Positions 7,662-10,755 of a stretch of 25,350 nt of DNA are shown here, in pieces (the first letter of the stretch is position 1; each line of letters starts with the position of its first letter). The notes under the pieces were generated by a model that was given only the letters and a program-made list of their open reading frames with translations, did not search any database and had not been told where the DNA came from. The position numbers were made by a program, and so were the translations under genes. This DNA is from Escherichia coli (GTDB taxonomy: Bacteria; Pseudomonadota; Gammaproteobacteria; Enterobacterales; Enterobacteriaceae): NCBI RefSeq assembly GCF_003334255.1, contig NZ_QOWU01000041.1; one strand, given 5' to 3'.

Positions 7662-7727
7662 GGTACGCCTCCGTCAGACAATATCTGAATGACAGCGTGC
7701 GCAGATACCAGACTAATAGCAGCAATA

Positions 7728-7742
7728 AATTAAAAACGCGTG
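7728..7742. repeat. Left copy of a direct repeat flanking the iha cargo segment (AATTAAAAACGCGTG)
   Basis: Read directly from the sequence; matches 10299-10314 (AATTAAAAAACGCGTG) in 15 of 16 positions. Confidence 0.5.
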
Positions 7743-7887
7743 GATAAAAATTAATATGAAGATGCATGGTGCACAAAACGGTATCTGAACAGAAATCAGA
7801 CACCGGGAATCATATAACGTAGCCACTGAACATCCAGGAGCTGCAGTGGCAACGTATGCTACCGTCAGTGATACGGTTTTATGATTA

Positions 7888-9978
7888 TCAGAACTGATAG
7901 TTCAGTGACATCCAGTAATTTCGCTCAGGTATCACATAGCCCGTTGTTGATGATCCCGTCTGGAAGTAATCACCGGCATAAAGCGTACTCTTACCGGCAC
8001 TGTACAGGCTCACGTCACTGTAATCCTTGTTGAGCAGGTTATTCACCGCAGCATTCAGCGTCAGGGCATCCGTCACCTTCCACGACAGACCTGCATCCAC
8101 CACCGTCCAGGCTTTCAGATATTCTCCTTTCTCATCATACACTTTCTTCTGTACAGCGCTCAGCGACGAATAATTCCGGGTGAAGCGTGGAGTTTTATCG
8201 CGATAGCGAGCCCCCAGCCATGACGCAACTTCTTCGGTGATCTGCCAGTTCAGTTTCGCATTCACCATGTGTTCAGGAGTATAGCTCAGCGGTGCACCTT
8301 TGTTATCACCATCACGTTGTTCACTTCGGGTCCAGGTGTAATTCAACGACAGAGTGACATCCTCTGACCACAGCGGCAATGTGCCGGCAAATTCCACACC
8401 ATGCAAGCGGGCCTTTCCGCTGTTTGTATAGCTATTGGTGTTATCATCAATGGAATAAGAGACAATCTTGTTGGAGAAGTCTGTTATAAAGCCTGTTATA
8501 TTGGCATTCAGACCGGAGAGGTTATCGTAATATACCCCCGCCTCATAACTTACACTCTCTTCCGGCTTCAGTTCGGGGTTACCGAGTAGATTAGTACGTC
8601 CCTGCCCGGATACACCGCTGATCCCCTTATGTAACTGTCCCATGGTGGGGGCTTTATATCCCGTGGTCACACCGCCTTTCAGCGTCCAGGCATCTGCCAC
8701 ATCCCAGACCAGATATGCACGCGGACTGAAGTGTCCCCCGAATTGCTCATGATGTTCATAGCGGCTGCCCGCAGTCAGCGCAAGTGCATCCGTAAGATGC
8801 CACTCATCCTCAGCAAATACCGACCAGCTTTTCTGCCGGAAAGTTTCACCTGTGCTGGCAAGGACAACCCCGTCTTTCATGGACGAACTCTGATACTCGC
8901 CCCCCACCGTAACCAGATGAGATTCTCCCAGAGGGGTAAGCAGTAATGAATTCAGGATAAAGTTAGATTCCTTAAGCTCCCGCGGCTGACCGGCAAGCTC
9001 CCATTTGTCGCGCTTCAGTACACTTTGTACAAGCTCACGACCTTTATTTTCCGTCTCGTTCCAGTTCAGATACGATTTCCAGGTACCGAAGGTGAAAGAA
9101 TGATCATAGCCAGCTGAAATTTTGTTTCGCTCATAGCGCAGGGTACGGTCATATCCCCCGGTCAGACTCCCCAGCTGCCCGTCCCGGTTATCATAACGCT
9201 GCCGGGTGGTATCCATATCAAACCAGAGTACATCCTGCTCCGTGGCTTTCCAGTCAAGACGCGCACCAATATTATAATTCTGTGACTCCGTGGGATAAGG
9301 AATACGCGTGGCTGCTGTGTCGCTCAGTGATGTGACCGATGAGCCCTGACGCTGCTGTGTGCTGCCCCGGACCTGCAGACTGACAGAATCATCCACAAGG
9401 GGACCACTGGTCCAGAAATTAAACTGGCTGCTGTTACCCCATTTGTTGCTTTCCTGCAGATTCAGCCCTGCATTGACGGAAGAGAGCCATTTGTCTGCAT
9501 TCTTTCTGGTAATGATATTCACCACACCGCCCATCGCATCAGAGCCATACAGTGTGGACATCGGCCCCCTGATAACCTCAATACGCTCAATGGCGGCCAG
9601 AGGAGGCATGAACCCGGTATTCATGGCAGAAAAACCGTTGGGAGTCACGTCACTGCTCCCGCCCTGACGAACACCATCAATCAGTATCAGCGTGTAACTG
9701 GCAGGCATTCCACGGATGCTGATTTCCAGCCCACCGGTTTTACCCGTACCACTTTCAACATCCACACCCTCGACAGATCTCAGAGCCTCCGCCAGATCGT
9801 GGTACTGACTGGACTGCAATTCCTCCTAGCTGATCACAGAGACACTGGCGGCTGCGTTAGTCAGTTTTTTCTTATAGCCGGATGCCGAGACAATCATCAC
9901 ATTCTCTGCAGCAGCCATGCTGCTGGCTGAGAATCCGAGGCAGGGAATGATGACAGAAGCCAGAGTGGTTATTCGCAT
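7888..9978 (-). pseudogene. iha: TonB-dependent outer-membrane siderophore receptor/adhesin, IrgA/Iha-like, interrupted by an in-frame amber codon at codon 51 (9826-9828)
   Basis: The ORF track gives 7888-9819 with a TTG start, but the frame continues upstream to an ATG at 9978 encoding MRITTLASVIIPCLGFSASSMAAAENVMIVSASGYKKKLTNAAASVSVIS, i.e. a signal peptide and TonB box, then TAG, then EELQSS.... The plug domain (ISIRGMPASYTLILIDGVRQ) and a C-terminal aromatic residue (...LNYQF) are present. Total 696 codons. The N-terminus matches my memory of E. coli Iha; the symbol is tentative. Confidence 0.7.
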
Positions 9979-10029
9979 ATTAATAATCTCCGATCATATT
10001 AACCGGCAAGACAATACACAAATACAAAC

Positions 10030-10048
10030 AATAATGAGAATAATTTAT
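10030..10048 (-). promoter_or_regulatory. Fur-box-like site in the iha promoter region
   Basis: AATAATGAGAATAATTTAT matches the 19-bp Fur consensus GATAATGATAATCATTATC at 13 of 19 positions, about 50-70 bp upstream of the iha ATG in an AT-rich region. Confidence 0.45.
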
Positions 10049-10298
10049 ATTTACTTTTTACAAAAACTGAAGATTCATAACAAAACAAAATATATACAAC
10101 GACTTCAGCGACACGCCTGTTAACGGCTATCTGCCTGACAGATTCGATTCTGAATGTAAAACCGGTTACTGCAGAAACGTATGCTCACAGCCAGTCGGCC
10201 ATAAATGCTCTCTGGAGGGGCACGAGTGAAATGATTCAGTCAATGAGTTCTTCCGGTGAATACGGATAAAAATATTGCCGTAATGTAATAAACGTGTT

Positions 10299-10314
10299 AA
10301 TTAAAAAACGCGTG
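10299..10314. repeat. Right copy of the direct repeat flanking the iha cargo segment (AATTAAAAAACGCGTG)
   Basis: Read directly from the sequence; overlaps the stem of the terminator at 10301-10362. Confidence 0.5.
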
Positions 10315-10362
10315 TACCGGCAGGTATGAATTGATCCCGTAACCCATCTGCCGGTTACACGC
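10301..10362 (-). terminator. Rho-independent terminator ending the TraC-containing operon segment
   Basis: On the minus strand, a 14-bp GC-rich stem (CTGCCGGTTACACGC / GCGTGTACCGGCAG, one bulge) with a 24-nt loop is followed immediately by TTTTTTAATT. It lies 7 bp downstream of the stop of the 128-aa ORF. Confidence 0.6.
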
Positions 10363-10368
10363 TGGCAC

Positions 10369-10755
10369 TTATTTTTCTGCCTCCATACCATTCAGCCACA
10401 ACAGCAGATAGAACAAATCGGCCGCATCCACAACCTGGATATACCATCTCAGATGCGTATACTCCTCCTCTGACGGCCAGCATTCATGACCACCCACGGA
10501 AACAAGCAGATAGACCTTTCCGGTATCACCTTCCAGCGTCACCGCCACGCTGCTGTTCATGCCAACCCGCTGGGGCTGGCATACAACACGACGCAACTTT
10601 CCCAGACGACGATTAAGGTGTGAGCGCAGCCGCAGAAGATGCGGCTGTGTTATCTCTGTCACCCCGGGCTTACCCTGTGGCGGCAAAAAAAACACAACGC
10701 CACCCGGATGCACCGCTGTCTGCAGCTCCGGCTCCGGATATTTCAGATACATCAT
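10369..10755 (-). CDS. Hypothetical 128-aa protein translationally coupled to traC
   Basis: Start ATG overlaps the traC stop (ATGA arrangement at 10752-10755). No signal peptide or known motif recognised; GC-rich like the core. Confidence 0.5.
   Translation of the reverse strand: MMYLKYPEPELQTAVHPGGVVFFLPPQGKPGVTEITQPHLLRLRSHLNRRLGKLRRVVCQPQRVGMNSSVAVTLEGDTGKVYLLVSVGGHECWPSEEEYTHLRWYIQVVDAADLFYLLLWLNGMEAEK

Follow-up and report, generated by a model that had tools for sequence, protein, structure and literature searches.

This locus raises the question of how a segment bearing a virulence-associated gene came to lie in the midst of the genes for conjugative transfer, and whether a short repeat found at its two sides records the event. 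The stretch analyzed here, hereafter the window, comprises 25,350 nucleotides of an Escherichia coli genome (assembly GCF_003334255.1, contig NZ_QOWU01000041.1) and belongs to an integrative conjugative element (ICE). Between two blocks of its transfer genes, at 7662-10370, lies a segment in which iha, coding for a TonB-dependent receptor/adhesin, is the sole substantial open reading frame (ORF). A preliminary description had taken this segment for iron-regulated cargo that entered at a terminator, partly duplicated it and split the transfer genes into separately terminated units. Based on comparisons with related ICEs that lack iha we arrive at a different reading, which we hold with considerable confidence: iha, a pseudogene in this strain, is a passenger in a permissive spacer of an ICEEc8-like ICE, and the repeat is not a product of its insertion.

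The evidence that carries this reading comes from the empty sites, which we sought by joining the two flanks of the segment into a single query against the complete genomes of E. coli. ICEs without iha were recovered at 96.9% backbone identity in the strains G6/7, UCPROB-001 and JNEC-KY177, and the 264-bp iha-free spacer itself is present at at least 99% identity in 13 genomes (G6/7 and 12 others). That the segment is foreign cargo inside a transfer gene cluster, as previously claimed, is thus borne out by near-identical ICEs that do without it; likewise, its GC content (0.489) is indeed below that of the transfer genes on either side (0.561 and 0.582). In a pairwise BLAST comparison with the G6/7 locus (L002), positions 7659-7754 of the window align with 1860-1955 and positions 10204-10382 with 1963-2140, placing the breakpoints at 7754/7755 and 10203/10204. 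A 141-bp query laid across the left junction gave the same limit more widely: 115 other ICE-bearing genomes match it only as far as 7754, and the adjoining stretch 7755-7816 was found only in five iha-bearing ICEs of the window's own lineage. The identity to the G6/7 ICE is mosaic, falling to 86-91% near the slot, a pattern which fits exchange by homologous recombination between ICE lineages.

On one side of the slot a predicted intrinsic terminator, with a GC-rich hairpin followed by a U-tract, stands directly after the stop codon of the 128-residue gene that succeeds the TraC-like ATPase. The preliminary description was right that a strong terminator of the TraC segment contains the right copy of the repeat, and the fold agrees with this (a simple terminator scan omitted this hairpin, whose loop and bulge are beyond the limits of the scan). 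The same structure is predicted in the iha-free G6/7 site with a folding free energy (dG) of -33.2 and a z-score of -4.8, so the insertion did not create or partly duplicate it. On the other side is a leader of about 95 nt that precedes the TIGR03757 gene and reads on the minus strand TTAATTTTCAgt.TCCGGTTTTGAATTTATTGCTGCTAT...TCTGCGCACGCTGTCA...ATTGTCTGACGGAG...ATG. Its homology ends at ...AAAATTAA (7754) in all five ICE lineages aligned. The left copy of the repeat is the window lineage's variant of the leader element TCCGGTTTTGAATT, whose minus-strand form TCCGGTTTTGAATTTATTG is kept by four other ICE lineages, some of them with unrelated spacers; the loci L002-L005 have AATTCAAAACCGGA at the left-copy position, and the conserved TTAATTTT lies beyond it. 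Within this leader we also observed that the blocks TCTGCGCACGCTGTCA and ATTGTCTGACGGAG are invariant. The empty spacer holds the homologue of the left copy (AATTCAAAACCGGATG) and the right copy (AATTAAAAACGCGTG) with the complete terminator, about 150 bp apart. Since the one copy is leader and the other is terminator, and both occur in iha-free elements, the repeat is not an insertion product. Likewise, as elements that lack iha already have this terminator, the transfer genes appear to have formed two units before iha arrived, one ending in TraC, the 128-residue gene and the terminator, and the other starting from the leader with TIGR03757 and the genes that follow on to TraG-N, rather than having been split by the insertion as had been supposed.

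We accordingly suggest the following course of events. In an ICEEc8-like ICE of the MPF-G type, iha sits as passenger DNA in a non-coding spacer that separates two transcription units older than its arrival. DNA placed between the terminator of the one and the promoter of the next should disrupt neither operon; hence, the spacer can be expected to tolerate cargo, and the ICE lineages accordingly carry different DNA there. To elaborate, the slot holds about 370 bp of unrelated non-coding DNA in one lineage (L003), a 1.9-kb region with a DUF1187 gene in another (L004), and an AraC-family regulator, a hypothetical gene and DUF1187 in a third (L032:8360-10741). A further locus (L033:8379-15306), checked on its TIGR03757-side flank only and with no TraC or hypothetical genes in the stretch covered, carries McrBC-like genes, an Eco57I-type restriction–modification (R-M) methylase and Dam-like genes. 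Moreover, in a lineage of mostly avian isolates with a backbone identity of about 79-83% (L005 and L011), the slot is again occupied by iha, in an allele about 85% identical. There iha enters at a different point, namely the stop codon of the 128-residue gene, and on its two sides stands a direct repeat of 77 nt (91% identical) duplicated from that gene's 3' end (L005:1732-1808 and L005:4139-4215 in E. coli VTB96815v; L011 is alike). Such a pattern would be expected if a circular intermediate had integrated by a single crossover or if a gene fragment had been imported. When a counterpart of this duplication was sought around the insert in the window, none longer than a 15-17-mer was found. The insert also has no transposase or recombinase gene, no terminal inverted repeats pairing its ends and no adjacent target duplication. 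By these features it probably came by illegitimate recombination, and iha would then have passed from one ICE lineage to another through homologous recombination within the tra genes on either side. A scan for the exact leader pattern (TCCGTCAGACAATA-N8-ACAGCGTGCGCA) in one genome per species gave no match, and the slot is documented only within E. coli.

The cargo gene is unambiguous in identity. Against the NCBIfam equivalog model NF010012 (PRK13486; cut-off 924), the intact allele of NCTC9112, whose ICE is 99.3% identical, reaches 1594.7 bits, with the match spanning residues 1-696 of 696, and the allele of the window, which represents a lineage distinct from the island copies, is collinear with it and equal in length. 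The protein has been well studied both as an adhesin and as a receptor for catecholate siderophores, in work that later papers credit to Tarr in 2000 and Léveillé in 2006. The reading frame is uninterrupted in NCTC9112, SCU-171 and 2013C-3033. In the window, codon 51 has changed from CAG to TAG, and the longest ORF past this stop begins at a TTG and has no signal peptide. As no downstream ORF keeps the signal peptide or the N-terminal region, the nonsense mutation probably inactivates the gene, and the cargo is probably non-functional in this strain. A side observation on the gene concerns a 4.4-kb contig labeled 'MAG: Collinsella sp.' (JAIJJM010000249.1, L014), which encodes Iha at 97% identity and is almost certainly a mis-binned E. 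coli fragment.

The gene is known to be repressed by Fur-Fe2+ via a box that overlaps its promoter. In the window, a Fur-box-like site is present in the AT-rich promoter region where the preliminary description had placed one; it is kept in three diverged iha lineages, namely those of the window and of O157 (13/19) and the avian lineage (14/19). Further, iha is a direct Fur target in strain CFT073 by chromatin immunoprecipitation sequencing and RNA sequencing (PMC7157518). The segment does bring a promoter region of its own, and the site in it is a candidate Fur box: the match is weak by itself, and the site gains weight only because of its position upstream of the ATG and its conservation in the three lineages. 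The designation of the segment as iron-regulated cargo holds to the extent that its gene is iha and a Fur target; it had overlooked the in-frame TAG.

Several points weigh against the reading offered here, and these have to be set beside the alternatives. The empty site is not clean, in that it keeps about 95 bp of homology to the DNA upstream of iha, and the right boundary of the insertion can be placed at either 10203 or 10298, just as the direction of change can be either an insertion or a deletion from an iha-bearing ancestor. Relative to the family consensus, the left copy has 4-5 clustered substitutions which raise its match to the terminator tail, and the frequency with which shuffled sequences match the repeat, given below, is low, albeit not compelling. 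A consensus promoter scan found no sigma-70 minus-strand promoter in the TIGR03757 leader, an outcome in keeping with an activator-dependent promoter of the kind that other ICEs in the SPI-7/PAGI-2 family have. The functions of the terminator and of the TIGR03757 promoter are predictions, and so is the Fur control of the window's allele; 15 other sites in the window match the Fur consensus at 13/19 and one at 14/19, making a score of 13/19 unexceptional in itself.

The alternative closest to these points is the one first proposed for the locus, in which the cargo inserted into the TraC-unit terminator and copied some 15 bp of it, so that the repeats mark its ends and the operon was split by the insertion. 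The repeat on which it is built is real, with both copies lying exactly where they had been described; among local alignments of the two non-coding flanks it ranks first, its score is reached in only 2.2% of 1000 dinucleotide-preserving shuffles, its right copy belongs to the terminator, and the homology of the window to the iha loci of pathogenicity islands stops at 10298, exactly where the right copy starts. However, direct repeats of comparable length are present elsewhere in the 3 kb. The repeat also does not bound the insert: backbone homology passes the left copy by a further 12 bp, through TTAATTTT, to 7754 and, against the empty site, resumes at 10204, 95 bp before the right copy, the left copy moreover being within a leader that lineages with unrelated spacers also keep. 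The left copy lacks a second hairpin arm, and the insert is without transposase or inverted repeats. A target-site duplication has repeats that abut the ends of the insert and a single copy in the empty site, and neither was observed. The arrangement favoring it would be a single AATTAAAAACGCGTG linking the terminator straight to TATTGCTGC, without the TTAATTTT(C/T)A leader element. The preliminary description had itself expected one copy and the terminator at the empty site and had named the same repeat arrangement without an insert as speaking against its model; the 13 iha-free genomes hold precisely that, with both elements about 150 bp apart and the terminator intact. We hence regard this model as very improbable, and the repeat is statistically marginal and mechanistically irrelevant, neither copy having been made by the insertion. 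A subtler explanation for the likeness of the left copy to the terminator tail is short templated conversion, by template switching between two nearby imperfect repeats, in place of chance drift. Where the left copy differs from the family consensus, the changes (TCCGG to ACGCG, and G to T) lie close together, every one of them raises the match to the tail, which lay about 150 bp away in an iha-free ancestor, and the rarity of such a score among the shuffles agrees with it. Yet the change is seen in one lineage only, and the surrounding 50-100 bp are more diverged in general (86% identity); accordingly, we think such a conversion improbable.

The history of iha at this site hinges on the 95-bp segment at 10204-10298, which matches the distal iha upstream region of the O157, LAA and ST131 islands in about 1,430 genomes. 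More broadly, about 1,500 E. coli genomes have iha outside ICEs, in islands or on plasmids, and their match to the window begins at 7797/7817 and stops at about 10298, their settings being O157:H7 OI-43/48 beside the ter genes, LAA/LPA-type islands beside btuB, pheV islands including that of sequence type 131 (ST131), and plasmids. This can be accommodated in two ways. In the one, the spacer from 7755 to 10298 is all iha-locus DNA that was placed beside the U-tract of the terminator, with AATTAA on both sides (7749-7754 and 10299-10304), and the G6/7-type ICEs are deletion derivatives that lost 7755-10203 and retain the 95 bp as a scar. The homology of non-ICE iha loci stops where the ICE-specific sequence, i.e., the terminator, begins; 86-95 bp of the empty spacer match island loci at 73-78%; and the spacers of other ICE lineages have no such sequence. 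On the other hand, a direct fusion of terminator and leader was found in no ICE, an AT-rich repeat of 6 bp counts for nothing statistically, and the G6/7 deletion junction holds 7 bp (CGCAGAG) which are absent from the window; nor is the ancestral extent of the iha locus given by the chromosomal orthologues of Citrobacter, whose non-coding DNA lacks detectable homology. In the other, 10204-10298 is native ICE spacer into which iha was inserted at 7755-10203, and the island and plasmid copies descend from an ICE-borne copy that took the 95 bp along. The same homology data are compatible with this; further, the G6/7 spacer agrees with O157 against the window at several positions (e.g., GAATGGTCAGTG), implying that it is not simply a truncated version of the window's allele, and iha of E. 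coli is always on mobile islands, with chromosomal orthologues only in other genera. However, the island copies would then need a break exactly at the edge of the terminator, and they are flanked by no other ICE sequence such as the hypothetical or TIGR03757 genes. On grounds of parsimony we favor placement followed by deletion, because the island homology ends where the ICE-specific sequence begins, and deem it quite plausible while stopping short of calling it probable; the descent of the island copies from the ICE appears unlikely.

Returning to iha as a passenger in a permissive spacer, two extensions of that reading can be linked, which we put forward together as speculative and rather improbable. 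The slot might be a general, as yet unnamed cargo hotspot of the SPI-7-type ICEs of E. coli and possibly the source of the island copies of iha (O157 OI-43/48, LAA and the ST131 pheV islands), because the 95-bp segment is common to iha-free ICE spacers and all the island copies. In addition, as iha is co-oriented with the downstream transfer operon and followed by a modest terminator, Fur-controlled read-through into TIGR03757 and on through TraG-N is possible. Were this so, the conjugation of ICEs with an intact iha promoter would respond to iron starvation.

The positions of the features discussed above and of the neighboring genes are collected in Table 1. The assignment of the element to the SPI-7/PAGI-2/pKLC102-type (MPF-G) ICEs is supported by its gene set, both in the RefSeq annotation of the matching record, a chromosomal element of E. 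coli of the SPI-7/PAGI-2 type, and by the TIGR03757 match. All the transfer genes are on the minus strand, including genes of the TIGR03745-03759 families, TraD, the TraC-like ATPase and TraG-N (RefSeq); the matching record also encodes a SPI-7-type DnaB helicase, ParA/ParB, type IV pilus genes and an integrase that adjoins a tRNA-Phe gene. Identical or nearly identical DNA is present in Shiga toxin-producing E. coli (STEC): positions 6800-11200 are 100% identical to strains 2015C-3121 and STEC2018-553, and 2015C-3121 is 99.99% identical to the window over 1076-25275. The 128-residue gene downstream of traC had no NCBIfam match, and a scan of 7300-10800 with Rfam at E-values up to 1 returned no RNA family.

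Two other parts of the window deserve mention. Between the RAQPRD-family gene and TIGR03747, also inside the transfer region, GC again falls, to 0.375-0.43; here, at 18504-19085 on the plus strand and hence opposite to the transfer genes, is a hypothetical ORF of 193 residues with no PADLOC match, and this second low-GC island may be another cargo slot. Towards the beginning of the window, at 320-1492 (+), an intact DUF262/HNH protein of 390 residues (PADLOC REase_II, E = 6e-86) is encoded behind an EcoRI-family methyltransferase gene, where GC is low (0.33-0.37). The gene for the DUF262/HNH protein is broken by an IS1A insertion in 2015C-3121; the copy in the window lacks that IS1, marking the source as a sister strain.

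Table 1. Features of the iha-bearing spacer and the adjoining transfer genes (window coordinates)
Feature	Position	Strand	Basis
TIGR03757-family ICE gene, first gene of the downstream transfer operon (TIGR03757, TIGR03756, on to TraG-N)	7263..7661	-	NCBIfam TIGR03757, 131.8 bits vs cut-off 73.2; RefSeq
Conserved leader/promoter region of the TIGR03757 operon (predicted promoter), ICE backbone and not insert	7662..7754	-	Alignment across five ICE lineages, 76-97% backbone identity
Left repeat copy AATTAAAAACGCGTG, within the conserved leader and ending 12 bp before the breakpoint	7728..7742	.	Sequence; alignment
DNA of the window that the closest iha-free ICE lacks (2449 bp, in place of 7 bp in E. 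coli G6/7)	7755..10203	-	Pairwise BLAST vs L002 spacer
Terminator-like hairpin downstream of iha, 10-bp stem then UUUU	7779..7805	-	Fold of 7720-7830: dG -26, z -3.8
Hairpin directly 3' of iha, common to O157 and LAA-type iha loci	7817..7855	-	Fold and locus comparison
iha, TonB-dependent catecholate siderophore receptor/adhesin, pseudogene here	7888..9978	-	Translation; RefSeq 'iha ... internal stop'
Premature TAG, codon 51 (intact alleles: CAG, Gln)	9826..9828 (plus-strand CTA)	-	Translation, allele comparison, RefSeq
Fur-box-like site AATAATGAGAATAATTTAT, iha promoter region, 52-70 nt upstream of ATG	10030..10048	.	13/19 match to 19-bp Fur consensus
Distal iha upstream DNA, also in iha-free spacer (88% identity) and pathogenicity-island iha loci (about 73-77%)	10204..10298	.	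Pairwise alignment; L002:1962-2057; L006:8388-8484
Right repeat copy AATTAAAAAACGCGTG: terminator tail and U-tract, with the start of the 3' stem arm	10299..10314	.	Sequence; fold
Predicted intrinsic terminator of the TraC-hypothetical unit, stem 10310-10362, six U at 10303-10308	10303..10362	-	dG -29 kcal/mol, z -3.5, 0/200 shuffles as good
128-residue hypothetical gene, last of the TraC unit, counterpart of ICEEc8 ORF50	10369..10755	-	RefSeq WP_032308795.1
Conjugative transfer ATPase (TraC/VirB4-like)	10752..13568	-	RefSeq annotation

Among the systems described earlier, the nearest is ICEEc8, an 86-kb ICE integrated at pheV in STEC O117:H7 negative for the enterocyte effacement locus (LEE), which carries iha as ORF52; the gene is absent from the ICEEc8 of O91:H14 (Montero et al. 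2019, Emerg Microbes Infect, PMC6455142). Table S7 of that study gives the order as ORF50 (hypothetical, with WP_032308795.1 as its 99% reference), ORF52 (Iha, 2091 bp), ORF53 (TIGR03757) and ORF54 (TIGR03756). Compared through this published gene table, the window has the same gene order, and WP_032308795.1 is also annotated in the genome that matches it. ICEEc8 is at pheV and the ICE of the window, which has type IV pilus genes, lies next to a tRNA-Phe gene that has not been typed as pheV or pheU. Thus, given the gene table and the iha-free variants, both the arrangement and the presence/absence polymorphism of iha are already published. In contrast to ICEEc8, iha is a pseudogene in the window, and the description of ICEEc8 does not extend to an analysis of the junctions, the terminator or the sequence of the empty site.

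A second comparison is with the island copies of iha, namely those of O157:H7 OI-43/48 (TAI), the LAA/LPA islands, the pheV islands of uropathogenic E. coli (UPEC) and ST131, and pO113, which are about 92.5% identical at the nucleotide level over window positions 7817-10277. They share with the window the same Fur-box sequence, the same 3' hairpin and the homologous distal upstream region. They differ from it in being flanked by ter genes, btuB or insertion sequence (IS) remnants and by no ICE transfer genes; in the flanks of the O157 copy no remnants of ICE genes were found. More distant are the full-length orthologues from over ten species of the Citrobacter freundii complex (L015-L028, gene at ~6001-8085), which have 71-73% amino acid identity and are chromosomal rather than on an ICE. 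They possess a strong, near-perfect upstream Fur box (TAATGATAATTATTTGTATTATCATT) and a syntenic ABC-transporter-like operon upstream across more than ten species; their non-coding flanks show no detectable homology to those of E. coli iha. This synteny, together with the near-perfect Fur box, suggests that iha began as an enterobacterial chromosomal gene.

Conjugative elements are well known to possess variable regions and cargo hotspots, examples being HS1-HS5 in SXT/R391 ICEs and, in the ICEHin1056/PAGI-2/SPI-7 family, the accessory modules. Like these, the slot studied here is a fixed intergenic position in a conserved transfer cluster with unrelated cargo (iha, DUF1187, AraC, McrBC/R-M); unlike in SXT, no dedicated recombination system such as Bet/Exo is evident. 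To our knowledge, no hotspot has been named at this slot, which lies between TIGR03757 and the gene that follows traC. The accumulation of cargo there would be explained by the natural division of the transfer genes of this ICE family by a terminator. In more general terms, when short AT-rich repeats flank a segment of low GC, empty sites should be compared before the repeats are taken for insertion scars. The 95-bp remnant that connects iha-free ICEs to the island copies, and the fact that iha came to this slot independently in two ICE lineages, bear on the spread of the gene among pathogenic E. coli. For the window itself, the importance of these comparisons is mainly one of correct annotation: it presents a known virulence-associated gene, probably dead in this strain, on a published type of ICE.

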